Shown here: in pieces, positions 42,149 to 61,447 of the stretch
Layout: every line of letters begins with the position of its first letter
Numbering within the stretch: the stretch's first letter is position 1
Made by a program: the position numbers and the translations under genes
Assembly (NCBI GenBank): GCA_050952625.1
Contig: JBMNLH010000001.1
Span: 544,001 to 608,000 of the forward strand
Reading direction: 5' to 3'
DNA from: Bacillota bacterium
GTDB lineage: Bacteria > Bacillota > Ch66 > Ch109
Length of the DNA stretch: 64,000 nt
The notes under the pieces: generated by a model
The model's database searches: none
What the model saw: only the letters and a program-made list of their open reading frames with translations
What the model was told of the DNA's origin: nothing

Positions 42149-42243
42149 TTGTCTGCGGGTGCGCAACCTCAAGTGCGGGTTGAGCACTGCTCCCTTGTAA
42201 GCAACCAGTAACTGTCTAATTAACAAGGAGGGAAATAAGTTTA

Positions 42244-42475
42244 ATGCAATCCTATATCAGGGAAAGGGCAACCCCAGCGGTGCTTGTTTTAGACGCTTAC
42301 CCCAAAAAGTCGTGGTTTGGCCAGTTCATGCTGGCCGTCCTGGGTATATTGCTGCTTGCTGCTGCGATTAGCCTGATAGTTCCGACCGCTGCCCTGGCCG
42401 CGTCAGATTCGCTCGAAATCACCGGCGATGGGGTTACGACTCCGATGACGTTAACCCTGGAAGATCTGGAAAAAT
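42244..42475 (+). CDS. N-terminal part (signal peptide and domain start) of a frameshifted surface protein spanning 42244-43689
   Basis: Signal peptide ending ALA; LEITGDGVTTPMTLTLEDLEK continues as MEQHQEVY in another frame if one A is added to the A5 run at 42470-42474. Confidence 0.7.
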
Positions 42476-43689: not shown

Positions 43690-43709
43690 ATACCCGATAA
43701 AATCATATT

Positions 43710-43805
43710 GCTCCGAGCCCCGTGACCTAAAGGAAACTCCCCAAGGTCACTGCGCCGATAGGGTTCGCCTGGAAACGGGCGAGCCTCCCGTTGTGGAAAG
43801 GAGGC
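43710..43805 (+). ncRNA. Moco-class riboswitch (P3-less), internal to the cluster
   Basis: CTCCGAGC..GTGACCTAAAG...GGTCAC..GCCGATAGGGTTCGCCT-GGAAAC-GGGCGAGCCTCCCGTTGTGGAAAGGAG. Confidence 0.88.
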
Positions 43806-43823
43806 TTTTTATCCGGATAACTG

Positions 43824-43862
43824 AGATCCGGCTGGCTTCCTTTTGACCAGCCGGATCTTTTT
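43824..43862 (+). terminator. Attenuator terminator after the internal riboswitch
   Basis: AGATCCGGCTGG-loop-CCAGCCGGATCT followed by TTTT. Confidence 0.85.
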
Positions 43863-43944
43863 GTTGAGCTGATAGGAGGTGGGAACGATTATTTTTTTGC
43901 AGGGTTGACTAATTAAGGAGAAATAAGGGGAGGGAGAAAACAGA

Positions 43945-45372: not shown

Positions 45373-45548
45373 CATCCGTAGTCTTGCCCCAGAGCTGTAA
45401 CCGGAATTGGGGCAAGGGCCTTTTGCAGAATGCACTAGTCCTTCGTGAAATAAACATTCCTCAAGGTGTTACCAAAATCGGAGACGAGAGACGTTTTGGC
45501 GTTGCTATGCCCTTGAAAATATAATTCTTCCCAACAGTCTCACCAGCA

Positions 45549-48500
45549 TTGGCGAAGCGAGCATTTCGGCAATGTACCGCTCTATCTGAGATAAACATAC
45601 CCGAAAGCGTTACCGATATTGGGCCAAAAGCATTTCAGAGTTGTAGCAAATTAACAGAGATAGTCATTCCCAATAGTGTTGCCAGCATTGGAGACAGAGC
45701 CTTTTATAGATGCAGCGCTCTTACATCTGCAACTATTCTAGGTACTGATACTGCCTTGGGAGCTGAGTTGTTTGACCAATATCCCGCAGGGACCCCCAGG
45801 GTGGTAACTATACATGGTTATCGCGGCTCTACTGCCGAAGCGTACGCAACTGAGAATAGTATTCCTTTTGAAGCCATAGACGCAACTGTAGCGGTTACTG
45901 GCGTAAGTATTACTGAAAGCGACCAGGAGTTGAAGGTCGACGAGACCGTTCAGCTTAATGCCGTCGTTGAGCCAGCGAATGCCACCAACAAGAACGTCAC
46001 CTGGTCCAGCAGTGATGAAAGTATTGCCACGGTAGACGAAAACGGTCTGGTAACCGCAGTGGCACAGGGCACTGTCACCATTACGGTGACCACCGAAGAT
46101 GGGAACTTTACCGACAGCATCACCGTCAATTCGGTCCCAGTTGGCCCACAGATACTGCTGCGCTGCAACTCCGGAATCCCGGAGGCGAACGTATTCATCA
46201 CCGGCAGCGGTTTTGATGTCGGCGCGGTGGGAACAATCTGGTTCGACACCAACAATAATGGAGTCCTGGACGATGGTGAGCCGTCAGTTGATGTGAAGAC
46301 TGATGCGGATGGGGCTATCCCCTTGCTCACGAGTCTAACTGTTCCTTCAGTAAGTACGGGCAACTACACTGTGCAGGCTGATGTCCCGAGCGGGGATGGC
46401 ATCGAAGCTGCCGCCGTCTTCACTGTAACCGACGTCGGCATAATCGTTGGCCCAATCAGTGGAAACAGTCAAGGACAGGGTGATGTCAGATATATCACAG
46501 TTACCGGCAGCGGTTTTGCCCCCAGCACCGGCTATAGACTTTTCTGTGACCGAAATGGGAATGGGATCTTCGATGATGGTGCTTACAAGTCTGGTACTAC
46601 AACAGCTGACGGTACAGTGTCAGTGAATAATATGTCTTGGCCGGCATCGCCGACAGGTATCTACAATATCCTCTTAGACATTAATAAAGATGACACCATA
46701 GAGGCTTCAGCCAGCATCGCGATTACTCCGGGTATTAAAATTAGCACTCCCAGAGGTGTCCCCGGAGCAAATATCGGTATGACTCTTGTAGGTTTTTCGG
46801 CGAATGAGACCGGGTATGTCTGGTTTGATACAAATGGTAACGAAGTCTGGGATGAGGGCGAGAACCAGTTACCTGTAACAACCAGTGGTGGCGGGTCAGT
46901 TAATACCTCCGGCTTGATCGTACCTTCCGTATCGCCAGGAAACTATCAGGTTTGTACCGCAATACCGGCCTGTGGTCTCAAAGCTTCAGCCACCTATACT
47001 GTCACTGGCTTGACACTGAATCCCAATTCAGGGACAGCCGGCACGAGCATAGACATTCTGGGTTATGGATATGTGGCTAACCAGACATCCGGCAAGTATA
47101 TTTGGTTTGACACTAACGGCAACGGCTCTTGGGATGCTGATGAAAGCAAGGTAGACGTAACCACCGATGCCAGCGGTACCCTGTCTCCTGTTTCTCTTAC
47201 TGTCCCGGCAGTGCCCGCTGGTACCTATAATGTATGTGCTTCCGTTTTTCCCAGTGGAACCTTCGCGGTTTTCACTGTTAAAGATCCGCCGGCAATTGAC
47301 ATTCTCTACGACGGGACAGTCACTTTAAATGCAGGTGAGACCTTTACGGTGACCGTCGATGCTAATGAATATATAATTAATGAGAACACACCACTGGGTG
47401 CGCTTCATAAAGCCTCAATTGCCAGTGGCTTCAGCTATGCTGTTACGGATAAGAAATACCAAAATTCAGGTATTCTTCTTTTAGATGATATAGGAAGTTA
47501 TCCTTATGTAAAGAGTGGCAGTGAATGGTACGCCTATGTGAATGATGTTTATAAAGATGGCTATGAAAATTCTAATAATGCCCTAAATCTTGTTGAACTT
47601 GTGGATGGGGATAAGGTTGAGTTCTACTACGCCGACATTGACTCGACCGACCTCAATGCGGTAAAGACAGCGGCTACTGCGGCAGTGTTAATCGTTGTTG
47701 ATTCCGATGCAACCACACCATCTGACTGGACGCTTCAACTCTCAGGTGCCAAAGAGGAAACTGTAACTAAAGCCTATTTTGAGCAAGGCCTGGCCTGCGC
47801 ATCATCTAGTCATCAGGTGTCCTGGACTGATGGAGACGGTAATACCTGGGGAGGTGTACCCTTATGGCTGCTGGTAGCCATGGTTGATGATGACCCGGAT
47901 GCTGGTGATAAGCACATCAATTTTAACGACGAGCTTGCTGTCCAGGACTATGAAATTAAAGTAATAGCCGGCGATGGCTGGTCGACTACCCTGAGTAGTG
48001 CAGCTATCGCCCGCAGTGATGCTTATATTGTCGCTAATACCCTGAACGGAGAACCGTTGCCGCTTAAGACCGAATCAGGCAAAGACTGCTGGCCGCTCTA
48101 TCTTAAAGGTTCAGCTATCTCTGGCGGACAGCAGGTAGGCAATATTGTTCGTATCGAACTGTCTGGTCTGCCTGAACCAACTGCTGGATGGACACTGGAG
48201 ATGATCGGAGAAGTAGGGGACACCATAACACAAGAGGAATTTGAAGACGGATTGGCCTGTACTGGCTCCGGCCATTACCAGGAATGGAAAGATAAAGACG
48301 GAAACCTTTGGTCCGGTGTGCCACTGTGGGTACTTCTAGGAGCAGTGGACGACATTGAGACCGGAGCCCACTGGACTTTCAATAATGAACTTGCCTCAAG
48401 TTATAGCGTTAAAGTAATTGCTGGTGACGGAAATTATTTCAAGACCTTTGCTGGTTCCGATGTGGCCGAAAGCAACGACTATATTGTAGCGAATAAATGC

Positions 48501-50480
48501 AATGGTGAAGCACTTACCGGTTCATCCGCACCACTGCGCCTAGTCGGGGATGGTGTTACCAAAGATGATGGCTCACTCGGAGGCCTAGCTGTTGGTAACA
48601 TCGCCCGGATAGAAATACCTGAACTGCAGACGCCGGCCGCTGAACCTGGCAGCTGGAATCTGGCCTTGAATGGTAAGATCAGTGATGTGATTTCCCAGAC
48701 TGAGTTTGAAGCTGGCCTGGTCTGTCCAAATTCGGGACACTTAAAGCAATGGAAGGATGCTGACGGTAATGTCTGGTCAGGGATACCCCTTTGGTTACTG
48801 GCTGGCTGGGTAGATGACCGAAAGCCCCACAGTTACGATTATAATCAGGCTGTGATTGGTTACAAAGTCCTGGTGAAAGCTGGAGACGGCTACAGCGTCG
48901 ATTTTGCGAGTGCAGAAATCAATAAGAGCAGCGACTATATTATTGCGAATAAATTCAACGGTGTGCCACTTACTGATTCGGGACCACTGCGTCTGGTTGG
49001 CACTGGTGTTGCCAAAGACGATGGCTCCCTGAGCGGAAAAAGCGTCGGGAATATCGTGGAGATCGAGCTGACCTCCTTCGCGACCGGCGGTGGTGGAATC
49101 ATCCCCGAACTCCGTATTGTCAAGTATGCTGAAGACGGCACTACCATCCTGGCCGAAGAGACCCTCAATTACATCGACATGAAGGATCGGTTCAAAGTGA
49201 TTGGGGACGGGACTACGGTATATAAATTCCAGGGAATTACCAATGACCCGGAAAATATATGGGACCCAGAGGAAACCAATCTCGGCGGTTTTAAGATAGC
49301 CAATGCTGTAATGGGCACCCGCCTCAAAGACCTTTGTGAACTGGTTGGTGGTATGGGAGCAGGAACCGAAATCGTCTTAGCTGCCAATGACGGTTATGAA
49401 ACCAAGCTTCCCTATTCCTCCATCTATACTGACCCATCAGTACAGGCCCGCCAGGGGGATGCCATTCTGGCCTGGTATGCTGACGGTAAGTATGTTCCTG
49501 AGTATCGCGATGGTATGCGCTTATTCTTTACGCCGGAGGATACGGTTTATAGTCAGTGGGATATGCACGAGACTCTGCCGGAACCATACTGGCATTACTA
49601 TGGTGCTGAGGGGGTTATGTATCCTTCTTGTGCTGGTTTGTCAGCCAAGTACATTACCGAAATCAAGGTATACTCCGTGCCCCAGGGTGATTGGACACTG
49701 GAACTCGATGGTCAGGATATTGGTGGTCTGAAGACTGATATAAGCAAGACCTATTTTGAATCAGCCCTTACCTGCCAGTTTGGTGCTAACCACAAGGCAA
49801 CCTACACCGATTCTAAAGAACGAACCTGGGAAGGTATGCCGCTGTGGTTCCTGGTTGGCTTCGTCGATGACGCTGACCAGCATTCCAATAACGCCTATAA
49901 TGATGCTCTGGCCGAGTCAGGGTATCAGGTGGTAATCACTGCAGAGGACGGCTATTCGGTAACAATTGATAGCACAGATCTTGGCCGGAACAATAACTAC
50001 ATTATCGCCAACTCGCTGAATGGAGCGACTATTCCTGAAACTGATGAAAACTGGCCGCTCCGTCTAGTTGGACCAGCTGTTACCGGAACTAACTCAATTT
50101 CGCAGATTGTAAGTATTAAGTTGGTGAGCTCAGAACAGGTTGATCCGGTTTACACAGTATCACCTGTGGCTGATGCCGCTTATACTGCGGGGACTAATCC
50201 GGACGGCATCAATACCATGACCGTTAATACGGGTGTATCCGGGTTCAAATACTTCACGGTTGATATCGAACCGGTGGCCTCCCACAGCGGTGATGAAACC
50301 GTGGTCTTCACTCATTTACGAAACGGTATTCAGCTGCAGATCAACTCTACTAGAGCCGACTTTGATGAGGTTGATATTGCTCAGGCTGGTTTTAATGTTC
50401 AATCCGGGGATGTTATCAAAGTTTACATCGTGGATGAGCTGACCAATGCCACTGACCACAACCCGGTGATTCTGCAGTAA
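45549..50480 (+). CDS. 3' part of the giant surface protein: LRR_5, Big_2, 4 DxNxNG-type repeats, DUF4430-like, 5 molybdopterin-binding-like domains, conserved C-terminal domain
   Basis: AF..C..L..I.IP.SV LRRs; four W.G.PLW.L...VDD...DG..PL.L.G domains plus one divergent copy; no signal peptide or RBS of its own. Confidence 0.75.
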   Translation: MAKRAFRQCTALSEINIPESVTDIGPKAFQSCSKLTEIVIPNSVASIGDRAFYRCSALTSATILGTDTALGAELFDQYPAGTPRVVTIHGYRGSTAEAYATENSIPFEAIDATVAVTGVSITESDQELKVDETVQLNAVVEPANATNKNVTWSSSDESIATVDENGLVTAVAQGTVTITVTTEDGNFTDSITVNSVPVGPQILLRCNSGIPEANVFITGSGFDVGAVGTIWFDTNNNGVLDDGEPSVDVKTDADGAIPLLTSLTVPSVSTGNYTVQADVPSGDGIEAAAVFTVTDVGIIVGPISGNSQGQGDVRYITVTGSGFAPSTGYRLFCDRNGNGIFDDGAYKSGTTTADGTVSVNNMSWPASPTGIYNILLDINKDDTIEASASIAITPGIKISTPRGVPGANIGMTLVGFSANETGYVWFDTNGNEVWDEGENQLPVTTSGGGSVNTSGLIVPSVSPGNYQVCTAIPACGLKASATYTVTGLTLNPNSGTAGTSIDILGYGYVANQTSGKYIWFDTNGNGSWDADESKVDVTTDASGTLSPVSLTVPAVPAGTYNVCASVFPSGTFAVFTVKDPPAIDILYDGTVTLNAGETFTVTVDANEYIINENTPLGALHKASIASGFSYAVTDKKYQNSGILLLDDIGSYPYVKSGSEWYAYVNDVYKDGYENSNNALNLVELVDGDKVEFYYADIDSTDLNAVKTAATAAVLIVVDSDATTPSDWTLQLSGAKEETVTKAYFEQGLACASSSHQVSWTDGDGNTWGGVPLWLLVAMVDDDPDAGDKHINFNDELAVQDYEIKVIAGDGWSTTLSSAAIARSDAYIVANTLNGEPLPLKTESGKDCWPLYLKGSAISGGQQVGNIVRIELSGLPEPTAGWTLEMIGEVGDTITQEEFEDGLACTGSGHYQEWKDKDGNLWSGVPLWVLLGAVDDIETGAHWTFNNELASSYSVKVIAGDGNYFKTFAGSDVAESNDYIVANKCNGEALTGSSAPLRLVGDGVTKDDGSLGGLAVGNIARIEIPELQTPAAEPGSWNLALNGKISDVISQTEFEAGLVCPNSGHLKQWKDADGNVWSGIPLWLLAGWVDDRKPHSYDYNQAVIGYKVLVKAGDGYSVDFASAEINKSSDYIIANKFNGVPLTDSGPLRLVGTGVAKDDGSLSGKSVGNIVEIELTSFATGGGGIIPELRIVKYAEDGTTILAEETLNYIDMKDRFKVIGDGTTVYKFQGITNDPENIWDPEETNLGGFKIANAVMGTRLKDLCELVGGMGAGTEIVLAANDGYETKLPYSSIYTDPSVQARQGDAILAWYADGKYVPEYRDGMRLFFTPEDTVYSQWDMHETLPEPYWHYYGAEGVMYPSCAGLSAKYITEIKVYSVPQGDWTLELDGQDIGGLKTDISKTYFESALTCQFGANHKATYTDSKERTWEGMPLWFLVGFVDDADQHSNNAYNDALAESGYQVVITAEDGYSVTIDSTDLGRNNNYIIANSLNGATIPETDENWPLRLVGPAVTGTNSISQIVSIKLVSSEQVDPVYTVSPVADAAYTAGTNPDGINTMTVNTGVSGFKYFTVDIEPVASHSGDETVVFTHLRNGIQLQINSTRADFDEVDIAQAGFNVQSGDVIKVYIVDELTNATDHNPVILQ

Positions 50481-50606
50481 TGATTCAAACCGTAAGTATT
50501 TGAAGGATTGAGAAGCGAAATGGGCAAAACCTGAAAAAGCCGTTGGCTCGAAGGGTTTTGCCCAACGCTCCCCATCGAAGATTTATAACTAAAGGAGCAG
50601 GGTGAT

Positions 50607-52175
50607 ATGATACCTGAATTGGAATACAAAAAAAGGAAGCATCCGGGGGCTAGCCGGATAAGCTGCCTGCTTATAGTCCTCTTCGCCCTTTTTTGCTCCT
50701 GCTGTTTCCCTGCGGCTGCTTGGGCTGAGGAAGTCACCCGACCCGGGCAGATTATTTTAACCTGGACCCAGGACCCGGCTACATCCCAGACGATTACCTG
50801 GTTAACACCGGATGCTGAGGCGAATAAGCTCCAGTACGCCGAGTCATCAGGCTTTGACGGTGATTTTTCCGACGCCGGACTAATTACCGCAACTAGTGAG
50901 CAATTTGCCGGCGGCGATAATTACCGGTATACAGTCACGATTACCGAATTGAATCCCGGTACGCAATATGTCTACCGGGTGGGCAGGGACGGAGCCTGGA
51001 GCGAGATATTGTCTTTCTCGACTTCCGCTGATCCAGATGACTTCACATTCTTATACCTGGGTGACGTTCAGGAAGGGTATGCTCAGTGGGGCAGTATGGT
51101 GGAGCAGATTTACGAAGAGAATCCAGAGATTAAGTTTGCCTTATTGGGGGGAGATTTAACCAATGGTGACAGCGAATCCGAATGGGAACAATTCCTTGGT
51201 ACTGCAACAGGTGTATTTTCCCGGATACCGATGATGCCGGCCAAGGGTAACCACGATGGAGATTTATTTTTGGAGTTCTTTTCCCTGCCAGATAATGGTC
51301 CTCCGGGGGCAAACGGTAATTTTTATTCCTTTGATTATGGTGATGCTCATTTTGTAGTATTAGATACCAGCAACATTATTACTGATAGTGTCAAACAATG
51401 GCTGCAAGAGGACCTGCAAAATACGGATAAGAAGTGGAAGTTTGCCGTCTTTCATCACCCTCCTTATCAAAATTTTGATGATAATAAAACTATCGATGAT
51501 GCTCTTCGTGAAAACTGGGTACCAACATTAGAGCAAAACCAGGTTGATATGGTCTTTGTTGGGCACCAACATGTCTATATGCGAACCCATCCTATCTTCC
51601 AGGAAGAAGTACAAAGCGATTCGTATGGAATTGTCTATGTGATGGGGAATTCCGGTTCTAAACATTATAGTCTCGGGGAAGGTTTTCCCTATATTGCCCG
51701 AGAGGAGTCGGGCAGCAACTATCAGGTGATTGAAATTCAAGGGAATTTTTTAACTCTGACGGCCAGGAAAGCGGATGGTGAACTGATTGAAACCTACACC
51801 ATCGGAAAAGGAGATACACCGGTTGAGGAGGAAGAGCCACGTTATACGGTCATTCCTGATGAAACCGACCCAACCTATACCCCGGGCAGCACTGAAGATG
51901 GCATTTGTACCTTGACTGTGAACCCTGGTATATCGGGATTTAATTATTTAAGGGTCGGTATTACTCCGCGCGTCTCTCATAGCGGCGAGGAAACCGTGGT
52001 CTTTATTCATTTAAGAGACAACGATCAACTAGGGCTTAACGCCACTAGAACTGATTTTGATCAGGTAGGTACTGCCCAGGCTGGTTTCAACGTAAAAGCC
52101 GGTGACGTGATCAAGGTTTACATCGTCGATGCGTTGACCAATGCCGAAGACCACAATCCAGTAATCCTGCAGTAA
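50607..52175 (+). CDS. Secreted purple-acid-phosphatase-like metallophosphoesterase with the shared C-terminal domain
   Basis: Signal peptide; Fn3-type N-domain; GDVQ, GGDL, GNHD, HHP and GHQH motifs. Confidence 0.85.
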   Translation: MIPELEYKKRKHPGASRISCLLIVLFALFCSCCFPAAAWAEEVTRPGQIILTWTQDPATSQTITWLTPDAEANKLQYAESSGFDGDFSDAGLITATSEQFAGGDNYRYTVTITELNPGTQYVYRVGRDGAWSEILSFSTSADPDDFTFLYLGDVQEGYAQWGSMVEQIYEENPEIKFALLGGDLTNGDSESEWEQFLGTATGVFSRIPMMPAKGNHDGDLFLEFFSLPDNGPPGANGNFYSFDYGDAHFVVLDTSNIITDSVKQWLQEDLQNTDKKWKFAVFHHPPYQNFDDNKTIDDALRENWVPTLEQNQVDMVFVGHQHVYMRTHPIFQEEVQSDSYGIVYVMGNSGSKHYSLGEGFPYIAREESGSNYQVIEIQGNFLTLTARKADGELIETYTIGKGDTPVEEEEPRYTVIPDETDPTYTPGSTEDGICTLTVNPGISGFNYLRVGITPRVSHSGEETVVFIHLRDNDQLGLNATRTDFDQVGTAQAGFNVKAGDVIKVYIVDALTNAEDHNPVILQ

Positions 52176-52452
52176 GGTCTCTAAGCGGAAGCTGCTACTT
52201 TTAGACCATCAAAGAGAGAACTATAAGCTTGCAGGTGGTGCTAAAGGCAGTATGGATCTTAAGCCGTAGGTGGAAGGAAAGCGGAGCAAGAAAGCGTTGT
52301 CCAATGGCGACCATACTTGCTCAATCCCGACCTATCACTAAAGTGAAAATTTTTGGGATCTTGACGTTTTTTGAGGATAAAGGGATTTCCACGGCTGACT
52401 TGATTGGCTTTGCTGCCAAGCAAGATCTTAGATAAAGGAGTGAGCGATCCAA

Positions 52453-54684
52453 ATGATGCACAGGATAATTAAGCGCAGGATAATTGTGTTTCTCCAAATC
52501 GCCTTACTGCTGATGATGTGTTTTCCGGCTGTTGTAATGGCAGATAGTTCACCTCAAATAAGTGTGTCGTTGAGTAAAACTACGGCACCAGTTGGCGATA
52601 GCGTGACCGTTTCCGGTACAACGGCATCAGGCGCATGGGTCCCCCTTAAAGTGATTGACGAGGCAGGAAATATAGTAGTATTCGATGCCGGAAAGGCAGA
52701 TCCGAGCGGTAATTACAGTATTGGTTTCATTGTGCCAGCCAGTGCTTCCGGTACATTAACGGTTGTTGTCGGGGAAGGCAGTGGAGTGGCGACCAGTCCC
52801 CTGACTGTGGGAACCGCAGCACCGAAAGCTTCACCAACAAGCGGGTCAGTAGGTACCGGCACTAAAGTGACCTTAATGTCTACAACCGTTGGGGCGAAGA
52901 TTTTCTACACCCTAGATGGCAGTATCCCAACTCAAAACAGCGTAGAATATACCGGTCCAATTACTATTAATGAGTCTGTTACCATCAAGGCCATCGCCAT
53001 TAAGGCTGGTATGAGTGCCAGTACCGTGCTGACCGAGTCGTATACAGTTATTGAATCGATAGTAGATGAAGAAGTAGAGGTTACCGATTCTAATAAGGAA
53101 CTGGCTATAACCGAGGAAACAAAAAGCCTGGGTACCCTCGTCCAAATCAGCGTGCTTGATAACGTGAATGATGCAAAGATCAGTGTCAGTGCGCTTATGA
53201 ATCCCCCTGAATCTGGCATGGTGACCACCAGTGAATTGCCTGCCCTGAACATAGCAGCCACTGACACTTCTTTCAGTTCTGCTCCCATTCAGGTAGCAAT
53301 ACCGGCCGGAGCAAAAATAAGTGCGCCGGAAGGCTGGAACGGCACCATTAACGTTCCTACTGTTCAGCCGGCTAATACGGTAACAATCGATCCGGATCCT
53401 GGCCAAAAGGTCACCGTCAATAGCGTAATCGAGGTTGGCTATGGTGACATACCACTGACTTTTGACAAAGCCGTGCGCCTTGCCATCCCCGGCCAGGCCG
53501 GCAAGGATGCGGGCTACTACCGAAACGGTGAGTTTACTAAAATCCCCAGTTTACCGTCAAATGCTCAGGATGACCAAGACTGGGCGGATGCTAACATAGC
53601 TCCCGGTAAGGATGGCAAGATGGATGTCGGTTCGGACCTAGTCATTTGGACCAAGCACTTCACCAAGTTTGTCAGCTATACGCAGACTGCCACCGGTAGC
53701 CCAGGTGGCGGCGGTGGTGGCACTCCACCATCAAAGGCGGTTACCTCCACTACCGGGTCGGCCAAAGTTACCCCCAGTGCTGGTGGCACCATCAGCCTCG
53801 GAGATGAGGCTACTATTAAAATACCGGCCAATGCCTTAGCCGGAACCAATGCTGTGGAAGTGAAAGTTACAAAAGTGACTGCCCCTCCCGCCGTACCGGC
53901 CGGCTTTAGGCTAGCGGGCAGCGTTTACGAGTTCAGTGTGGGCGGTAAAGATAGCTATAGCTTTGATAAGGAAGTGACTATCACTCTTAGTTTCGATCCC
54001 AATGCTCTCAAACCGGGTGAGACTCCGGCCATTTACTATTACGATCAAAATGCAAAGAAGTGGGTCAAACTTGGCGGTGAGGCAACTGACAACGCCGTAA
54101 CTGTAAAAGTGGATCACTTTACCCAGTTTGCCGTAATGGCGGAGCCGGCCTCGCTAGATCAAACCTTAACCGACATTACCGGCCATTGGGCGGAAAACCG
54201 GATTAAAGAACTGGTTGACCTCGGGGCTATCAGCGGTTACCCAGACGGCACCTTCAGGCCGGACAATAACATCACCCGGGCTGAATTTGCCACGATTCTG
54301 GTCAAAGCGTTTAAACTCGAACCGCAAAGCGGCAAGGTCTTTGCCGATACTACCAGCCACTGGGCTAAAGACACCATCGCTACAGCCGCAGCTTACGGCA
54401 TCGTTAACGGTTATGACGGTAATACCTTTGGCCCTAATGATCTGATTACTCGTGAGCAAATGGCCGCCATGATGGTGAATGCGCTCAAACTAACGCCGGT
54501 GACAGAAGAAATCTCGTTTATAGACAGCGGCAGCATCTCGGGCTGGGCTAGGGCAGCTGTGACCACAGCAGTGAATAACGGGTTAATCAACGGCTACCCT
54601 GATAACACCATCCGTCCCCAGGGCCAGGCTACCCGGGCTGAAGCGGCAACAATCATGGTGAATGCGTTACAAGTAAGAGGGTAA
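52453..54684 (+). CDS. Secreted SLH-anchored scaffold-like protein (Ig-like/Fn3-like domains, no catalytic domain seen)
   Basis: Signal peptide; IFYTLDGSIPT; WTKHFTKF; Gly linker; beta-repeat and 3x SLH nearly identical to those of the 35588 protein. Confidence 0.8.
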   Translation: MMHRIIKRRIIVFLQIALLLMMCFPAVVMADSSPQISVSLSKTTAPVGDSVTVSGTTASGAWVPLKVIDEAGNIVVFDAGKADPSGNYSIGFIVPASASGTLTVVVGEGSGVATSPLTVGTAAPKASPTSGSVGTGTKVTLMSTTVGAKIFYTLDGSIPTQNSVEYTGPITINESVTIKAIAIKAGMSASTVLTESYTVIESIVDEEVEVTDSNKELAITEETKSLGTLVQISVLDNVNDAKISVSALMNPPESGMVTTSELPALNIAATDTSFSSAPIQVAIPAGAKISAPEGWNGTINVPTVQPANTVTIDPDPGQKVTVNSVIEVGYGDIPLTFDKAVRLAIPGQAGKDAGYYRNGEFTKIPSLPSNAQDDQDWADANIAPGKDGKMDVGSDLVIWTKHFTKFVSYTQTATGSPGGGGGGTPPSKAVTSTTGSAKVTPSAGGTISLGDEATIKIPANALAGTNAVEVKVTKVTAPPAVPAGFRLAGSVYEFSVGGKDSYSFDKEVTITLSFDPNALKPGETPAIYYYDQNAKKWVKLGGEATDNAVTVKVDHFTQFAVMAEPASLDQTLTDITGHWAENRIKELVDLGAISGYPDGTFRPDNNITRAEFATILVKAFKLEPQSGKVFADTTSHWAKDTIATAAAYGIVNGYDGNTFGPNDLITREQMAAMMVNALKLTPVTEEISFIDSGSISGWARAAVTTAVNNGLINGYPDNTIRPQGQATRAEAATIMVNALQVRG

Positions 54685-54906
54685 GCAGGTTCAGAAGCTA
54701 GATAAATACTGAAGCGAAATCAAATCAAAATATCCGAGGGACCTTTCTCGACGGCGGAGAAAAAAGAAATTTTTTCTCCGCCCAACTTCTGTCTGATCCT
54801 ATTAACGTTTTCTTAACAGATTTTATTACATTAGTAGCCACTTTTGTCTGATCCCTATAAACCTTATAGGATAAATTAGGATAATATAGTTAGGGAGGCA
54901 TCCTGG

Positions 54907-55467
54907 ATGCAGCGTTTTTATTTATGGAAAGAAAAAGCAGCCGTTGTTGCTTTGTTGTTGTTTTTGGCCGTTTGCGGCTTAGGATGTGGCGGTACTCCGG
55001 CCGAGAAAGCTGTTCCCGGCGTATTGTTTATTGAGGGTAATGGTGTTGAGGGTAAAGTTTCCATCACCCTGGAGGAGTTAAAATCTATGCCGGATGGTCT
55101 GGTAGAAGCTGATTATTTCTCGATTAATTCATATGGGACCAAAAAATATTTTCATTTTAAAGGTATTTGGGTGTGGCATGTTTTAAGGGAAAAGGTTACT
55201 TTGAAGGATTCTGCTGCCAAGGTTGCCTTTATCGCAGAGGATGGCTATAAGGTGGAATATACCCTGGAAGAGGTAAAGCGGGAAGATTATATCGACGAAC
55301 AAAACCCCGAGACAAAATACAAGATGATCCTGGCCTGGGAAGAAAACGGACGGGAATATGACCTGGATAATGGCAATCCCTTTCAACTGGTCGTTGGGCA
55401 GCGAGAGCCCGGGGATGTAAACAAACCCTACTGGGTCCGGAATATAAAGACCATCCGCATTGATTGA
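54907..55467 (+). CDS. Lipoprotein with a single molybdopterin-binding-like domain
   Basis: Lipobox LGC; ITLEELKSM, FKGIWV, AEDGY, ILAWEENG, PFQLVV, WVRNIKTI. Confidence 0.75.
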   Translation: MQRFYLWKEKAAVVALLLFLAVCGLGCGGTPAEKAVPGVLFIEGNGVEGKVSITLEELKSMPDGLVEADYFSINSYGTKKYFHFKGIWVWHVLREKVTLKDSAAKVAFIAEDGYKVEYTLEEVKREDYIDEQNPETKYKMILAWEENGREYDLDNGNPFQLVVGQREPGDVNKPYWVRNIKTIRID

Positions 55468-55547
55468 GCCGAGCCTGACCGGCCGGGTAGGAGGTTATCT
55501 GAAGCGAAAGACTCCAACGACGTTCACACAGGGAGGGTCTAAACCAT

Positions 55548-56345
55548 ATGGAAGAAAAAATAAATGGCCAAAGGAAATACTACCTGAGCAACCGGGACCT
55601 GTTGATTATCGCGGTATTGAGCGGTATCGGAGGGGTGATGAGCACCTATATCGGCTATTTGGGCAATTTGTTAAACCGCGTTTTCGGCGTTCCCTTCGGT
55701 GCCGGGCAGTTTGTGTCCGGTCTGCACGTTTTTTGGTTCATCCTGGTAGCGGGGCTGGTCAGGAGGCCCGGTGCCGCTACGGCCGCTGGCTTGCTCAAAG
55801 GAGTAATCGAACTGCTCACCGGTAGCACCCATGGGGTTGTGATAGTCCTGATTTCTCTGATCCAGGGGTTGCTGGTCGATGTTGTCCTGCTGCTTACCCG
55901 GCGGCACAATTTACTAAGTTACATGTTGGCTGGCGGAGTGGCGGCTGCATCGAATGTATTTGCCTTTCAACTCCTCTATTTTTCCGGTGCTCCCATGACC
56001 TACCTTCTCCTAATTGGCCTTATGGCCCTTGTTTCAGGTGCTCTTCTGGCGGGCAGCTTCGGACACAGCGTCCTGGAGGTTGTGCACCAGGCCAGACCCT
56101 TTCGTTTTGCGGGTGGATCAGAGGAAGAGCTGGCCGCCGGAGTCACACCAAATGGTGCTAAGAAAAGACTCACCCCCCGTTGCCGGCTGGCAGTCACTAC
56201 CCTGCTGCTGGTGGTGTTCGCGAGTGGGGCGGTTTATTACTTTGTCGCGGTCTTTGAACCTCCCTGGGTAGGGGCCTCGTTGTCAAGTAGCAGGGGCAGT
56301 GCAAAAACCTCTATCTTTTCAGCTCTCCGACTTCGACCAGTATGA
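55548..56345 (+). CDS. ECF transporter S-component (YkoE-like), frameshifted from its C-terminal domain
   Basis: About 6 TMs with LVRRPGAA and LIQG motifs plus an extra TM; removing one G from GGGG near 56271-56274 joins it to 56299..56631. Confidence 0.75.
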   Translation: MEEKINGQRKYYLSNRDLLIIAVLSGIGGVMSTYIGYLGNLLNRVFGVPFGAGQFVSGLHVFWFILVAGLVRRPGAATAAGLLKGVIELLTGSTHGVVIVLISLIQGLLVDVVLLLTRRHNLLSYMLAGGVAAASNVFAFQLLYFSGAPMTYLLLIGLMALVSGALLAGSFGHSVLEVVHQARPFRFAGGSEEELAAGVTPNGAKKRLTPRCRLAVTTLLLVVFASGAVYYFVAVFEPPWVGASLSSSRGSAKTSIFSALRLRPV

Positions 56346-56631
56346 AACGACCATAACCGCTGAATTAAAGGGACAGGTTAGTTACGTTCCGCCCCAGGAG
56401 TATACTGGTATACCCTTAAGGATAATTCTTCAGGAGGCCTCGCCTTTGGATGAAGCGAAAAAGCTTAGGGTCATGGCCACCGACGGCTATGAGGTGGAGT
56501 TTGAACTGGAAAAAGTATTTAATGACGATCAGATGCTGCTGATCCGAGAAGGGGATATGCTGCGCCTGATTGCTGGCAATTACGATGGCGGATACTGGGT
56601 GAAGCTGGTTAACCGGATAATCGTGGAGTGA
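56299..56631 (+). CDS. Molybdopterin-binding-like domain; probable C-terminus of the S-component
   Basis: YTGIPLRIILQEA, ATDGYEVEF, LRLIAG, WVKLVNRI; no RBS; upstream in-frame PRCQVAGAV completes the domain. Confidence 0.7.
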   Translation: MQKPLSFQLSDFDQYETTITAELKGQVSYVPPQEYTGIPLRIILQEASPLDEAKKLRVMATDGYEVEFELEKVFNDDQMLLIREGDMLRLIAGNYDGGYWVKLVNRIIVE

Positions 56632-56820
56632 ACTCGTTTCGGCTTCGTTGAACATCTAGCTCGGGGCTTCAGATGAACTCCTCCTGAAGTTTACACATTG
56701 CAACTACTCATGCATCAAGGATACAACCACCTATGATAATAGTGGCCATATGTCATCCTGAGCGTTAGCACTATTTATCAATAACCACTTATAGAAATGA
56801 AAGTCTTTTGATTCAGATAA
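56628..56820 (-). mobile_element. Mini-IS element, copy 5 (inverted, with an insertion)
   Basis: GTGAACTCGTTTCGGCTTCGTTGAACATC...CTTCAGATG...CCACTTATAGAA...GTCTTTTGATTCAGATAA. Confidence 0.55.
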
Positions 56821-56848
56821 GCTCTTCTGTTAGCTGGAAGGAGTTTTT

Positions 56849-58405
56849 ATGGTAGAACCGGTTGTTGACATTCAGGAACTCTCTTTTATTTATCTTGGTT
56901 CGAATTCTCCGGCCCTGGAAAAGATTAACCTGCAGGTCTACCCGGGCCAGTTTCTGACAATAACGGGTCCCAGCGGGTGCGGCAAATCCACGTTGGCTCT
57001 GTGCTTGGCTGGCTTTATCCCCCATGCTTATAGCGGGAAAATGGAGGGGACCGTCCGGATAAAGGGCAGAAACACCCGGGACTATCCCAGTGGCGGGCTC
57101 TCCGGCATAGTGGGTTTGGTGCAGCAGGATCCGGAGGCCCAGCTTTGTACCCTGACAGTGAGCGATGAGGTGGCCTTTGGGCCGGAAAACCTGTGTATCC
57201 CGCCAGAAGAGATCCAAGCGCGATGCTATTTTGCCTTGCAAGCGGTAGGTGCCCTGGATTTAAAGGATAGAAAAGTGTACACACTTTCCGGAGGCGAAAA
57301 ACAACGGGTGGCGATTGCCTCTGTGCTGGCGATGAATCCGTCGCTGCTTATCCTGGATGAACCGACAGCCAACCTGGATCCTTCTTGTACCAGGGAGGTG
57401 CTCCAAACTCTAAAAAAATTGAGAGAGGAACAGAAAATCTCGATTATTGTGATTGAGCATCGCCTGGAAAGACTTATCCCTATATCTGACCGCTTGTTGC
57501 TGATGGAAAAAGGAAAAATTATAGGGGAAAGCACGGCTAAAGAGTTCCCTAATAAATATTTCCCGGCCCTTAGCTCGACAGACACCAGCACTGTTTGGCC
57601 GCTGGAGAAACCATCAGCCCTTGAGAAGCAGGCCGAGAAAACGCCCCTTCTGACAATAAAGAATCTTAGAGCTGGGTATGAGGGAAGAAATGTTCTCTCG
57701 GGAATCAGTTTTTGCGCTTATCCCGGCGAAACCATTGCCCTCATGGGGAATAATGGGAGCGGTAAAACTACCCTTTTAATGGCCTTGCTGGGAGTGCTTA
57801 AACCTGAAGCAGGGACAATAATCAACCTTGAAGGACAAGATATAACCGGCGTCAAGGTTACCCGTCGTGCTCAGGACATGGGGCTTACCTTTCAAAATCC
57901 GAACCACCAGATTTTTGAACATACCGTGACTAAAGAAGCAACCCAGGCAGCCCGTTTTTTGAGTAAGAATGCCCAACCAGAAATTGAAGACAGAGTCAAT
58001 CGACTATTAGAAAGGTTCGAGTTGCGGCAATATCGAGATAAGAATCCCTTTACTTTGAGCTTGGGAGAAAAAAAGAGGCTGACTTTGGTTTCCCTTCTGG
58101 CGTATTCTCCCAGGATCTTAATCCTGGATGAGCCCCTCGTTGGTCAGGATAGGGACCGGCTTGACCTTCTTATCGCCGCGCTGCAGGAGCACCGGGCGCG
58201 AGGAGGAGTAACTTTGATGGTCTGCCATGAACCAAATGTGATTGCCTCCTGCTGTCAAAGGGTTCTTTTCCTGGCCAATGGAAAGCTGATCATTGATGCC
58301 CCGGTGAATATAGCCCTGGCAGAATTGGCCCAATTAGGGATGGAAGAGTATTTGCCTTCTGGGTATGAATTTTCTTCATCAGGTGAAAGAAGGTCAGACA
58401 GATGA
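56849..58405 (+). CDS. ECF transporter ATPase with duplicated ABC domains (A-A')
   Basis: GPSGCGKST, QDPEAQ, LSGGEKQR; second domain GNNGSGKTT, QNPNHQ, LSLGEKKR. Confidence 0.92.
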   Translation: MVEPVVDIQELSFIYLGSNSPALEKINLQVYPGQFLTITGPSGCGKSTLALCLAGFIPHAYSGKMEGTVRIKGRNTRDYPSGGLSGIVGLVQQDPEAQLCTLTVSDEVAFGPENLCIPPEEIQARCYFALQAVGALDLKDRKVYTLSGGEKQRVAIASVLAMNPSLLILDEPTANLDPSCTREVLQTLKKLREEQKISIIVIEHRLERLIPISDRLLLMEKGKIIGESTAKEFPNKYFPALSSTDTSTVWPLEKPSALEKQAEKTPLLTIKNLRAGYEGRNVLSGISFCAYPGETIALMGNNGSGKTTLLMALLGVLKPEAGTIINLEGQDITGVKVTRRAQDMGLTFQNPNHQIFEHTVTKEATQAARFLSKNAQPEIEDRVNRLLERFELRQYRDKNPFTLSLGEKKRLTLVSLLAYSPRILILDEPLVGQDRDRLDLLIAALQEHRARGGVTLMVCHEPNVIASCCQRVLFLANGKLIIDAPVNIALAELAQLGMEEYLPSGYEFSSSGERRSDR

Positions 58406-59241
58406 GTTTTTATCGTAATACTGTCCAGAACCGGATGGCCTCTGTTGTAAAGGGATTTTTCCCCGGCCTGACCTATGTGGATCAATGTTCCCGGTTGCAC
58501 CGGGTTCATCCTTTGGTCAAATTGGTTTTGCTTCTTAGCTTCAGCTTAACTGTTTTTGCTGTACCTTCTTGCCTCGGGGGAATTATTCTTTTCGGCCTGC
58601 TGCTTATCGGTTATGGTTTGGCCGGATTAGGCCTGGGCTTTTTTACGCGCAAGCTTCGCTTTATTCTTGTTTTTGGCCTGTTTATTTTCCTGATCCAGCT
58701 TATTGCGGTCAAAGAAGGCGTTTTGCTCTGGCAATTGTTCCTGGGGCCGATATACTTTTCAGTTTGGTCAGAAGGCCTTTTCGGCGGCTTAAGGATGATG
58801 CTGCGCTTGGTTAATATTATTGGTTCCAGTTATCTATTTGTCGCTACGACCGATCCGAACCGGCTCGCTTATGCCCTGATGCAGGCCGGGCTACCGTACC
58901 GGTTTGGCTTTATGCTCATTACCGCCCTGCGTTTTATTCCTATTTTTCAACTGGAACTGGAGCAGGTGAGGAATGCGCAAATGGCTAAAGGAATTGAAAT
59001 GGAGGGGCTTTCGCCGCGGAAACTCTTAAGGGCGGTCCGGTATCTGCTGGTACCGTTGGTGATATCTACGTTAAGCAAGGTTGATTATCTGACCATTTCG
59101 ATGGAGAGCCGGGCTTTTGGCCTCTATCCGGCAAGAAGTTACCAGCATTCCCAGGCCTTATCGAGGAATGATAAAATAGCCCTCTTTGTAGTTCCTCTTT
59201 TTTTTGGCCTTTTTACTTTCTTTCTAAACTACCTAAAGTGA
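58402..59241 (+). CDS. ECF transporter T-component (CbiQ/EcfT)
   Basis: LHRVHPLVKL, TTDP, ALRFIP, AQMAKG, SMESRAF. Confidence 0.92.
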   Translation: MSFYRNTVQNRMASVVKGFFPGLTYVDQCSRLHRVHPLVKLVLLLSFSLTVFAVPSCLGGIILFGLLLIGYGLAGLGLGFFTRKLRFILVFGLFIFLIQLIAVKEGVLLWQLFLGPIYFSVWSEGLFGGLRMMLRLVNIIGSSYLFVATTDPNRLAYALMQAGLPYRFGFMLITALRFIPIFQLELEQVRNAQMAKGIEMEGLSPRKLLRAVRYLLVPLVISTLSKVDYLTISMESRAFGLYPARSYQHSQALSRNDKIALFVVPLFFGLFTFFLNYLK

Positions 59242-59542
59242 AACCGATATTCGCCATATAAAAAAATGAACGCCAGGGAAAAGCGACTCCCAGTGTTTTG
59301 ACATTTTTGTACGATTCCTGAAAGCTTTGATCAAGCGGTTTTACTGGTTTTATTAATCAAAAAAGTTATTGGGAAGGAAATCCAAGCCAGATATGGAATA
59401 ATAAAGAGAGAGCATAGAAATTTATTGCTTAAGACAAACTAATATAATAGTTGATTAGAGAGGTTTTTTTATTTCTGGTGGCCTTATGCTGTCTAATATG
59501 TTATCTGGCACTGAAGGGAACGATCAGCAGGGGGTGTGAAAA

Positions 59543-61447
59543 ATGGAAAAGTTACTGGTCGCGGCAATTCAATACGAGCCCGCTATGTTTGCCTATGAAG
59601 TCAACCGGGAAGAGCTTTATCACCTGACGGAAAAGGCAGCCGCCAGCGGAGCCAAGATTATTGTCCTGCCCGAAATGGCGACAACTGGTTATGGCTGGTC
59701 CAATCGGTGGGAACTAGCACCGTATGTGGAAACGATTCCCGGACCAACCACTGAGCTTTTCTCGAAAATTACCCGAGAGTATGGCTGTTATGTAGTAATT
59801 GGTCTGGCAGAAGTTGACCCAGTAACTGGTATTTACTATAATGCCGCCGCCTTAGTTGGCCCGAACGGACTAGTGGGACGTTACCGCAAGACACATCTCT
59901 TTGTGGCTGATCCGCGATGGGCCGCTGTCGGGGATTTAGGGTTTCCGGTCTGGGAAACGGAGTTTGGCCGGCTGGGAATCGCTATTTGTCTGGATCTGGA
60001 GTTTCCGGAAGTCGCTCGAGTGCTAGCTTTGAAAGGAGCTCAGATCATAGCTTTCCCCTGTAACTGGTTGGGCGAAGTCTGTCCCTCCGGTATCTGGATG
60101 ACCCGAGCCTTGGAAAACGAGGTTTGTCTGGTGGCGGCTAATCGCTGGGGACGAGAGAGGGGGGTTAAATTTAGCGGCGGCAGTTGCGTTATTGGGCCGC
60201 AGGGGAATATCCTGGCTTTTCGGGGCAACGGCAATGGAGTTGTGGCTGCGGAGCTGTCTATACGTCTGACGAAGAGTGCTCCTGAACCGGCTTCCTCGGT
60301 GACAGAAAGTAATCAGGAACCGGAACGGCAGCTGGATCAGCAGACTGATGAGCAGAAGGAACTCCAGTTAAGGGAAGAATCTGCTTCTAGCACCCGGTTG
60401 GAACACAAACAGTTAGAGCCACTCGACGGTAGTTTTCGCCTGCCGGGAGATTATCTAATGAGACGAAGGCCGGACCTCTACCATCAGTTAATGTGCGCCG
60501 GCCATCTCTGGCGGCCAGAGACATTTTTTGGCCTTGACCGACACAGCCCACTCCCCGAAGGCCGTGAATCGCTCGTTGGATTAATTCAGTTTGAAGCCGT
60601 CCCAGGTAATCGAGATGCCAATCTAACGCGAATACAACAGTGGGTAACCCGGGCTAAGCAGGAGCAACCTGGGTTGCAGTTGTTAGTTTTCCCAGAACTG
60701 GCTAATACCGGTTTGGTAACGAATAAAATGTCAGAATTAGCTGAGTCAATTCCCGGCGCCACTTCCACCTTCTTAAGTCAAGTAGCAGTTGAACATGCCA
60801 TTTATCTGGCTTGGGGCATGGCTGAACGGGGAGAAGACGGATCGGTGTATATTACAGCCGTCTTAGCCGGTCCGGATGGTCGGATTTATACCTATCGAAA
60901 AGTTCATCTATTAGCCCGGGATGAGGTCTGGGCCCAACGGGGATCGGCTCTGCCTATGCCAATTGATACCTCACTTGGTCGAATTGGTCTGCTTCTGGGG
61001 ACCGACCTTCTTTTCCCCGAGGCAGCCCGCTGTCTGGCCAACCAGGGAGTGGATTTAATCGTAGTGCCGGCTGCTTTAGCCGGACCAGGGCCAGTCGGTC
61101 TTAGTCCAGAACAAAATTTAGAAATCTGTTCAGCTAAGATTAATGATCCCTACCACTGGTCAGTCTGGCGAGTCCGCGCCTGGGAAAACAGTGTATATTT
61201 AATAGTCGCCAATAAAGCCGGCAAAGGTGAAGTGCGGCGAGGTTTGAACCTGAGTGGGATCTTTGGCCCGATTGCCTACGAACGATCGGAGGCGGCTCAG
61301 GAAATCCTGACGGATTCGATGGAAGGTATGCTAGTTAAGACAATCAGTACTAGTCGTACTACGCGAGAGGGACGCCGGGTCCGGGCGAAGGATAATCTCC
61401 GACGCCGACAGATCGGTTTGTACCGGGAATTAGTGTTGCAGGGGTAG
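59543..61447 (+). CDS. Tandem nitrilase / carbon-nitrogen hydrolase (two domains)
   Basis: Domain 1: LPE, YRKTHL, ICLD. Domain 2: FPE, YRKVHL, LGTD. Confidence 0.88.
   Translation: MEKLLVAAIQYEPAMFAYEVNREELYHLTEKAAASGAKIIVLPEMATTGYGWSNRWELAPYVETIPGPTTELFSKITREYGCYVVIGLAEVDPVTGIYYNAAALVGPNGLVGRYRKTHLFVADPRWAAVGDLGFPVWETEFGRLGIAICLDLEFPEVARVLALKGAQIIAFPCNWLGEVCPSGIWMTRALENEVCLVAANRWGRERGVKFSGGSCVIGPQGNILAFRGNGNGVVAAELSIRLTKSAPEPASSVTESNQEPERQLDQQTDEQKELQLREESASSTRLEHKQLEPLDGSFRLPGDYLMRRRPDLYHQLMCAGHLWRPETFFGLDRHSPLPEGRESLVGLIQFEAVPGNRDANLTRIQQWVTRAKQEQPGLQLLVFPELANTGLVTNKMSELAESIPGATSTFLSQVAVEHAIYLAWGMAERGEDGSVYITAVLAGPDGRIYTYRKVHLLARDEVWAQRGSALPMPIDTSLGRIGLLLGTDLLFPEAARCLANQGVDLIVVPAALAGPGPVGLSPEQNLEICSAKINDPYHWSVWRVRAWENSVYLIVANKAGKGEVRRGLNLSGIFGPIAYERSEAAQEILTDSMEGMLVKTISTSRTTREGRRVRAKDNLRRRQIGLYRELVLQG

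Follow-up and report, generated by a model that had tools for sequence, protein, structure and literature searches.

Why should the substrate-binding subunit of an energy-coupling factor (ECF) transporter be joined to a domain of the sulfite-oxidase fold, and what would such a transporter import? The question is raised by a gene at 55548-56631 on the plus strand of a 64,000-nucleotide stretch of a Bacillota genome (GenBank assembly GCA_050952625.1, contig JBMNLH010000001.1, positions 544,001 to 608,000), which we call the window and to which coordinates refer. Once a single extra G is removed, this gene encodes a 360-aa protein in which a YkoE-like S-component (S) is followed by an additional transmembrane helix and a compact sulfite-oxidase-fold domain (D). 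We infer by computation, with a probability of roughly 60%, that the S-D fusion captures the substrate for a dedicated ECF importer of group I (YkoEDC-like), and that this importer salvages the tungsten or molybdenum (W/Mo) pyranopterin cofactor (the tungsten cofactor, Tuco, the molybdenum cofactor, Moco, or a close metal-pterin form). The first-pass annotation of the window had proposed metal-pterin as a new substrate class for ECF transporters, and this proposal gains three independent lines of computational support: the system lies behind a riboswitch in Bacillota, is anti-correlated with cofactor biosynthesis, and co-occurs with AOR-type tungsten enzymes. The usual assumption is that any cell using the W/Mo cofactor also makes it, and a search of the main texts in one paper library found no literature linking an ECF transporter, or any transporter, to it. 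The importer would probably be the first cofactor-salvage transporter of this kind.

A seven-helix S-component with a domain predicted to face outward

The S core comprises approximately residues 1-189 (55548-56114, plus strand) and contains six hydrophobic segments, all within residues 18-176 as judged by hydropathy. The 265-aa open reading frame (ORF) that includes it (55548-56345) scores 77.1 bits with PF09819 (ABC_cobalt, the YkoE family; cut-off 25.2), the match spanning residues 16-133. A profile from an alignment of 29 homologues (A1), in which mean column identity is 70% and both halves of the protein hold many invariant positions, matches the YkoE structure 5edl_A at E=2.6e-15, with query positions 17-189 aligned to positions 4-177 of the chain. 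A seventh hydrophobic segment lies at residues ~213-236 (56184-56255, plus strand; hydropathy peak 2.07), which bears out the first-pass description of a YkoE-like S-component with an extra transmembrane helix. With this helix and a domain of about 118 residues added, the protein departs from the usual S-component format, a stand-alone, six-helix protein of about 200 aa with its substrate site inside the membrane.

On which side of the membrane would D be found? The consulted part of the YkoE paper reports positive charge on the intracellular side in all S-components examined there. In the 29 homologues, the linker before the seventh helix has on average 5.4 Lys and Arg residues against 2.7 Asp and Glu, while the 12 residues after the helix have 1.2 against 2.3. 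We take the C-terminus of the six-helix core to be cytoplasmic, and from this, from the charge asymmetry and from the positive-inside rule for S-components, D is predicted to face outward, set there by the seventh helix. The charge pattern thus predicts the extracytoplasmic placement that had been proposed at first pass, and not a cytoplasmic domain.

D itself (about 118 aa; 56275-56631, plus strand) is, as far as its sequence can tell, a reduced Moco-binding fold. The 110-aa ORF at 56299-56631 scores 28.8 bits with PF00174 (cut-off 24); the match is partial, covering profile positions 62-160 of 169, and there is no dimerisation domain. The A1 profile also matches the sulfite-oxidase-fold protein SoxC (PDB 2xts) at E=4.8e-6, and the structural neighbours of D in the ESM Atlas are PF00174 proteins. 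D contains no Cys that is invariant across alignment A1, and five of the 29 homologues have no Cys at all after the seventh helix. A D domain without a conserved Cys fits a carrier that releases its ligand, not an enzyme. The fold from which D descends is the only protein fold known to bind the metal-pterin in its simple, nucleotide-free form.

We mapped the residues of the S pocket by hand, from the HMMER alignment to 5edl and the residue list of the YkoE paper. Glu77 and Gln95 of YkoE correspond to Glu88 and Gln106, both invariant in the fusion family. By contrast with these, Trp49 is replaced by an invariant His60, Tyr46 by Ser57 (Ser or Ala in the family), and Asp131 by Gln141 (Gln in the family). 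In YkoE, according to the consulted part of that paper, the Glu/Gln pair hydrogen-bonds the aminopyrimidine of thiamine and Trp49 stacks. By our reasoning pterin, too, would present an aminopyrimidine ring to such a pair.

The interrupted reading frame

If S and D form a single protein, why do they occupy two frames in the window? The ORFs at 55548-56345 and 56299-56631 overlap on the plus strand, the second in the +1 frame. A TAG at 56269-56271 closes the +1 frame and the frame 0 stop lies at 56345; the shift must therefore occur within 56272-56345. The GGGG run at 56271-56274 has one base too many, and another, earlier GGGG in the gene, at residue 29, is in frame. A database protein, P0001, is 360 aa long, carries two substitutions relative to the window product, and runs through this site without a break, reading ...PPWVGPRCQVAG..., which is the window translation minus one G.

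We compared contigs of four public runs with window positions 54800-57000. In the contig from run X7, which may be the source sample, the only difference from the window over 1.7 kb is a base missing at 56271, and the contig from X12, an independent run, is identical over 1.1 kb save for one base missing at the same position. Because both contigs lack the base and the near-identical P0001 is intact, the extra G is most likely an assembly or sequencing error in a short homopolymer; it may instead be a minor variant. It is doubtful that the S-D gene is a real pseudogene or a switched-off G-run variant, with an inactive locus in the source genome. The extra G is present in the window as given, and run X10 yields two contigs, one ending at 56273 and the other starting at 56272, a break that could reflect mixed G3 and G4 reads, but X7 and X12 are otherwise identical to the window without the extra base, P0001 is intact, and neither half of the window gene shows any further damage. 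The first-pass annotation therefore placed the extra G and predicted the corrected length of about 360 aa accurately, while the frameshift that it saw between S and D is probably not real.

RNA run X19 contains contigs of a 95-99% relative that cover parts of the S-D gene and cannot show expression of the window copy. At 56653-56797 this relative has 13 other letters in place of 143 nt, from which it follows that the spacer between the S-D gene and the downstream ATPase gene differs between strains.

Conservation of the fusion

A scan of one genome per species returned 260 genomic relatives, and locus analysis, with gene content taken from our own ORF calls, was carried out on the best 80 of these (62 bacterial and 18 archaeal). 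The 80 come from Bacillota (Syntrophomonadaceae, Desulfotomaculaceae, Dethiobacteria, Thermovorax, and Anoxynatronum) and from archaea (Thermoplasmata-type and Asgard). S is joined to D in all 80 loci. Among the best 120 homologues listed, 115 are 330-369 aa long and five are 184-297 aa, two of the five being marked as partial in the source. A profile search of 1.84 billion cluster representatives found 917 proteins at E<=1e-3, 74 at E<=1e-30, and about 35 full-length fusions. Representatives with S only (~190 aa) or with the seventh helix and D only (~170-190 aa) exist as well, natural splits among them being indistinguishable from fragments or frameshifted calls. The regular form in listed homologues, loci and representatives is thus the fusion and not a pair of separate genes.

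The ECF ATPase gene (A-A') lies at most three genes downstream of S-D in 75 of the 80 loci. Three of the five exceptions are at a contig end, and the other two, L019 and L047, have no A-A' gene. In L019, from a Dethiobacter metagenome-assembled genome (MAG), ModD is encoded on the opposite strand after S-D (locus positions 10001-11080), in place of A-A' and T, and upstream are genes for an ATPase, a radical-SAM protein, and a 390-aa protein of no known function; its S unit may rely on an ECF module that is shared or encoded far away. About ten relatives of 450-459 aa (including P0141, P0145, P0147, P0151-P0154, P0158, and P0159) have two matched stretches, which may represent S-D plus another D domain. 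Databases name the family in generic terms ("ECF transporter S component", "thiamin/HMP permease", "molybdopterin-dependent oxidoreductase"), and NCBIfam holds no model specific to the fusion.

A cofactor riboswitch upstream of the fusion

Rfam identifies four RF01055 (Moco-motif) riboswitches in the window. One of them, at 43699-43819 on the plus strand (74.4 bits against a gathering score of 36), is 11.7 kb upstream of the fusion. Model positions ~60-75, which correspond to P3, are deleted from it, leaving a P2-P4 junction of 5 nt, and it is thereby a member of the P3-lacking, putative tungsten-cofactor class. A run of T follows its 3' GGAGGC. This riboswitch is likely the leader of a plus-strand gene string that ends in the ECF genes.

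Is a riboswitch found before the fusion in other genomes? Within the 10-kb flank, 27 of the 62 bacterial loci have an RF01055-type riboswitch on the same strand upstream of the fusion (26 of the 44 for which 3 kb or more of upstream sequence is available, and 17 of the 29 with at least 9 kb), and the flank scan found none in the 18 archaeal loci. The riboswitch stands directly in front of the S gene, by 56-380 nt, in L031, L046, and L048, and in many other loci only genes for D proteins and a phosphoesterase intervene. Two relatives with long operons have a same-strand riboswitch 13.4 and 11.6 kb upstream, and several of the loci without a match are close relatives whose operons exceed the 10-kb flank. 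P3 is replaced by a 4-5 nt junction in all 40 matches, with the proviso that the model used for the search came from the four window copies, themselves P3-less; the Rfam model confirms the riboswitches in all nine loci that were re-scanned. Neither the window nor these nine loci contain a thiamine pyrophosphate (TPP) riboswitch (RF00059) detectable with Rfam.

In the consulted part of Regulski et al. 2008, P3-lacking RNAs are tied to tungsten-cofactor metabolism, by correlation only, and two such RNAs that precede "putative sulphite oxidase" genes in Syntrophomonas wolfei appear as unexplained exceptions. We consider it very likely that these S. wolfei genes are members of the S-D system.

Distribution of the fusion and of cofactor biosynthesis

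If the system salvages the cofactor, are its carriers able to make the cofactor themselves? We searched 30 whole genomes that carry the fusion by profile, and found MoaC in 20 of them, the MoaA C-domain in 21, and MoeA_N in 21. The same nine carriers, five archaea and four Bacillota, are without the MoaA C-domain, MoaC, MoeA_N, and MoaE. AOR-type tungsten enzymes are nonetheless encoded by 28 of the 30, including eight of these nine; the remaining one has three PF00384 enzymes. Among the nine are two complete archaeal chromosomes with one and four AOR genes and two and three PF00384 enzymes, respectively, in which profile search found no PF00994 (MogA/MoaB), PF13531 (ModA/WtpA type), PF12849, or NF041772 (TupA type).

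The relationship is also apparent in two larger samples. The first, 151 genomes of the class of G017, one of these archaea (one genome of the sample, G127, is unpublished), contains the fusion in 24 genomes, MoaC in 81, and AOR in 85. All 24 fusions are in AOR-positive genomes (24/85, versus 0/66 of those without AOR), and among the AOR-positive genomes the fusion is present in 20 of the 38 without MoaC versus four of the 47 with it (Fisher p=8e-6). The second sample consists of 151 genomes of the Asgard phylum of G019, with full-length fusions in 37, MoaC in 74, and AOR in 148. Here the fusion is found in 37 of the 77 AOR-positive genomes without MoaC and in none of the 71 with it (Fisher p=6e-14), and no genome of the 151 has both fusion and MoaC. 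The fusion is thus concentrated in genomes that keep pterin enzymes and have no genes for pterin synthesis or metal insertion, where import of tungstate or molybdate would be useless.

The gene string and its neighbourhood

After the riboswitch at 43699-43819 comes an unbroken plus-strand string of genes up to the fusion, followed by A-A' and T. The genes (all plus strand) encode a 475-aa surface-type protein with Big_2 and Fn3_assoc domains (43945-45372), in which residues 76-129 give a weak match to the D-domain profile (E=1.5e-4); a 1643-aa surface protein (45549-50480) with a PF00174 domain near its C-terminus (66.4 bits, residues 1423-1530), homologues of which are encoded upstream of the fusion in many loci; a secreted, purple-acid-phosphatase-like metallophosphoesterase (50607-52175; Pur_ac_phosph_N and Metallophos); a 743-aa cell-surface protein with three S-layer-homology (SLH) repeats (52453-54684); and a 186-aa exported D-domain protein (54907-55467). 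Downstream of the fusion, the A-A' and T genes that had been recognised at first pass are confirmed by profile matches: a 518-aa fused A-A' ATPase (56849-58405; two ABC_tran domains, ECF_ATPase models at ~329 bits) and a 279-aa T component (58402-59241; CbiQ, PF02361, 99.6 bits). A single long operon from the riboswitch to the T gene is possible. A scan of 43500-59600 for terminators and promoters yielded no more sites than shuffled sequence did (14 terminator-like sites from 43699 to 59241, versus 16.3 expected) and neither supports nor excludes it.

The 186-aa protein immediately upstream is a paralogue of the fused D (PF00174, 29.6 bits; 28% identity over 104 aa, E=2e-7 by BLASTP). Its N-terminus resembles a signal peptide or anchor and has two Cys, neither of them in a canonical lipobox, and inspection of this N-terminal sequence found no twin-arginine (RR) leader. 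The first-pass annotation called this protein a lipoprotein of the same fold as D; the shared domain is borne out, and the protein is likely a lipoprotein or otherwise anchored. Single-sequence searches of the PDB with this protein and with the domain of the 1643-aa protein gave sub-significant matches to sulfite oxidases, which we treat as leads only; in one such alignment the Cys of SorT is opposite an Asn of the upstream D protein. All five PF00174-like matches in the 2.9-Mb source genome fall inside one island (G000:C1:581127-600631, window 37127-56631), and a PF00174 scan found no canonical sulfite-oxidase-type enzyme elsewhere in it.

These neighbours recur in other genomes. Of the loci with at least 700 nt of upstream sequence, 49 of 58 in bacteria and 17 of 18 in archaea have a D-domain gene as the next gene upstream of S. 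With at least 3 kb upstream, 29 of 44 bacterial and eight of 14 archaeal loci encode a metallophosphoesterase in the upstream same-strand run, often as a fusion with D; this is an undercount (L006, for example, was missed as spurious short minus-strand ORFs break the run rule). An earlier jackhmmer count of metallophosphoesterase neighbours, 246 matches, was inflated by shared D domains; it was discarded and the recount made with the catalytic segment only.

The other three riboswitches of the window head gene strings of their own. The second (21325-21459, minus strand), also P3-lacking, precedes genes for a BtuF/IsdE-like binding protein (20011-21045), a FecCD permease (18943-19965), an ATPase (18120-18965), a radical-SAM protein (17126-18130), and a 384-aa protein of unknown function (15993-17150), all on the minus strand; a gene for a MOT1-type molybdate transporter (14477-15586) is found farther along that strand. 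A type II ATP-binding cassette (ABC) importer for a large chelate under a cofactor riboswitch (14477-21459) may be a second uptake route, and homologues are found near the fusion in L019, L041, L055, and L073. The third (21689-21805, plus strand) heads genes for a TrmO_N-FmdE fusion (21974-22798) and ModD (22933-23646; TIGR01334 above cut-off), and TrmO-FmdE homologues are near the fusion in L039, L041, L046, and L048.

The fourth riboswitch (35331-35458, plus strand) heads a further plus-strand string (35331-43689). It encodes a 1232-aa SLH protein with the HID domain of Shr-like heme-binding proteins and a D-like stretch, a 589-aa D protein, a MotA/ExbB-like protein (41185-41847), a DUF2149 protein (41810-42148), a 268-aa D protein, and a Cu_amine_oxidN1 protein. 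L002, L014, L015, L018, L019, L021, and L068 share the arrangement of 589-aa protein, MotA, small protein, and D protein, which sets an ExbB-like motor next to surface binding proteins in these Bacillota. Just upstream of this riboswitch (33642-34838, plus strand) is a gene for a 398-aa protein with a LysR-type helix-turn-helix and a TupA-like PBP_like_2 domain, which from its domains looks like a tungstate- or molybdate-sensing regulator. The island also includes ordinary methionine metabolism at 27789-32306 on the plus strand: an S-adenosylmethionine riboswitch (27789-27920), a MetH-like methyltransferase (28069-30531), a HcyBio protein (30645-31859), and a NIL-ferredoxin (31893-32306).

What does the transporter carry?

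If the system salvages the cofactor, exported D-domain proteins, some of them on the cell surface, would bind free or released cofactor and hand it to the tethered D of the fusion. From there it would pass into the membrane pocket of the S core, with its kept Glu/Gln pair, and ATP hydrolysis by A-A' would drive it inward via T. The phosphoesterase may trim nucleotide or phosphate groups beforehand, and plentiful cofactor would turn the operon off through the riboswitch. A secreted phosphoesterase makes sense if the cargo is a phosphorylated or dinucleotide cofactor, and would have no obvious part to play if it were an oxyanion. The source genome has other oxyanion routes, namely a riboswitch-led TupA-like gene elsewhere and the MOT1-type transporter at 14477-15586, and the S-D system would therefore not be redundant with metal uptake. 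The wider proposal, that surface D proteins, phosphoesterase, tethered D, S, and ECF motor constitute an unrecognised prokaryotic uptake pathway for the intact W/Mo pyranopterin cofactor, is finely balanced.

Several observations weigh against cofactor salvage. Thirty-five of the 62 bacterial loci have no riboswitch in the 10-kb flank, and in G007 the sole RF01055 match is at contig coordinates outside the range of the locus, which counts against universality. Moreover, Moco-motif riboswitches commonly precede molybdate and tungstate transporters, according to the consulted literature, and since they control these as well, regulation alone cannot separate cofactor from metal. The phyletic samples are mostly MAGs of unknown completeness, related genomes in them are not independent, and the fusion is absent from 18 of the 38 and 40 of the 77 apparent auxotrophs. 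Most Bacillota carriers, the source genome included, have MoaA, MoaC, and MoeA, so that salvage is not obligatory there. Profile search found no AOR in the source genome, which encodes three PF00384 enzymes (an in-frame TGA occurs in two of the three). The MoaE profile (PF02391) gave a match in just 11 of the 30 carriers, and not in the source genome despite its MoaA, MoaC, and MoeA; we gave its absence no weight. In L041 and L046 the gene just before the fusion is TupA-like, and ESM Atlas clusters of 427-aa and 445-aa Chloroflexota proteins combine a TupA/ModA-type binding domain (PBP_like_2/SBP_bac_11) with a D-like domain. Finally, Moco is chemically labile.

Some of these observations fit the main alternative, in which the system imports the metal and not the cofactor, and D serves as an antenna for oxyanions (tungstate, molybdate, or thio-forms) through the anion pocket of the sulfite-oxidase fold. 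The cobalt ECF system CbiMNQO, which is controlled by a B12 riboswitch, offers a parallel, and the position of Moco-motif riboswitches before oxyanion transporters, the TupA-like genes of L041 and L046, the joined PBP_like_2/SBP_bac_11 and D-like domains, and the ModD, MOT1-type transporter and TupA-like regulator of the island are all in keeping with it. We nevertheless regard metal import as unlikely. An importer of metal is useless without MoaA, MoaC, and MoeA, yet that is where the fusion concentrates; TupA-like systems are often already present in carriers; the S pocket keeps residues that recognise a heterocycle in YkoE; and a phosphoesterase is frequent in the operon. To our knowledge, no ECF S-component for an oxyanion has been described.

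Much less probable is a reading of D as a genuine molybdo- or tungsto-enzyme domain outside the cytoplasm (sulfite-oxidase- or MsrP-like), tethered to the transporter and placed under the riboswitch as a cofactor user. PF00174 similarity would agree with an enzyme, and the consulted parts of Regulski et al. (for the "sulphite oxidase" genes of S. wolfei) and of Burroughs et al. (for extracellular SLBB fusions) took such proteins as enzymes, but D lacks an invariant Cys and a dimerisation domain, aligns to part of the profile, and has an upstream paralogue without a twin-arginine leader. An enzyme domain after a membrane helix would also need cofactor loading outside the cell, and would explain neither the fusion to an S-component nor the link to loss of biosynthesis. 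An ordinary YkoE-type thiamine or hydroxymethylpyrimidine (HMP) transporter, with D irrelevant to specificity, is hardly credible: it is suggested by PF09819 membership, by similarity to YkoE, whose ligand is thiamine, and by source annotations that in some cases read thiamin/HMP permease, but in the window and the nine re-scanned loci Rfam finds Moco-motif and no TPP riboswitches, the equivalents of Trp49, Tyr46, and Asp131 are changed, the distribution tracks pterin enzymes, and nothing that we found points to thiamine or HMP as the ligand.

Were cofactor salvage correct, the range of ECF transporters would extend to a new class of substrate and to a new architecture, in which the S-component bears a capture domain outside the cell. 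It would explain why many Asgard and Thermoplasmata-type archaea and some Bacillota have AOR and formate-dehydrogenase-type enzymes without biosynthesis genes: about half of the sampled Asgard genomes (77 of 151 being AOR-positive and without MoaC) and many Thermoplasmata-type genomes would be cofactor auxotrophs with a known supply route. Moco or Tuco would then be a shared "vitamin" of anoxic communities, a point of consequence for cultivating these archaea and for modelling the metabolism of syntrophic, anoxic communities. The P3-lacking riboswitches would acquire a regulon member with a directly testable ligand. The family is compact, conserved, and present in cultured organisms such as Thermovorax subterraneus, Anoxynatronum, Desulfuribacillus alkaliarsenatis, and Syntrophomonas, and is thus open to experiment at the bench.

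Comparison with known systems

The closest known system is YkoEDC, the group I ECF thiamine transporter of Bacillus subtilis. It shares with the S-D system a PF09819 S-component, the layout of fused double ATPase and T, and the equivalents of Glu77 and Gln95. The S-D system differs in its extra transmembrane helix and predicted outward sulfite-oxidase-fold domain, in the replacement of Trp49, Tyr46, and Asp131, in having a Moco-motif and not a TPP riboswitch, and in a distribution that follows pterin enzymes. CbiMNQO and NikMNQO are likewise dedicated ECF systems that serve a metallocofactor economy, and the consulted literature places the cobalt systems behind the riboswitch of the finished cofactor. 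Their S units, CbiM and NikM, are however of another family and bind the bare ion, whereas the S-D unit is YkoE-like and carries a cofactor-binding fold. The oxyanion transporters TupABC, ModABC, and WtpABC share the regulon (through the riboswitch-led TupA-like gene of the source genome) and are sometimes adjacent or fused to D-like domains; they belong to another transporter class and are useless without cofactor synthesis, while the S-D system is enriched where synthesis is missing.

Other systems resemble the proposed capture step. The surface B12-scavenging SLBB proteins encoded next to CbiO/CbiQ genes (Burroughs et al. 2007, PMC1796856) are, in the consulted part of that work, extracellular ligand modules beside ECF genes in hosts without the pathway. 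The same part describes SLBB fused to an extracellular sulfite-oxidase-like domain in Syntrophomonas, taken as an enzyme; it concerns B12, and proposes neither an S-component fusion nor cofactor uptake. The Isd/NEAT heme relay of Gram-positive bacteria is alike by analogy only, in that several wall proteins with one small cofactor-binding domain are found upstream of an importer, and the Shr-like HID domain on one surface protein of the island recalls it. There is no sequence relation, the S-D importer is of the ECF type and not a binding-protein-dependent ABC transporter, and the relay is here only proposed. SorA, SorT, SoxC, and YedY/MsrP have the fold of D, and are set apart from it by the small size of D (~115 aa) and its lack of a conserved Cys, of a dimerisation domain, and of a Tat (twin-arginine)-type leader. 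Set beside all of these, what is new is an ECF transporter with a predicted external capture domain and, probably, a new substrate class.

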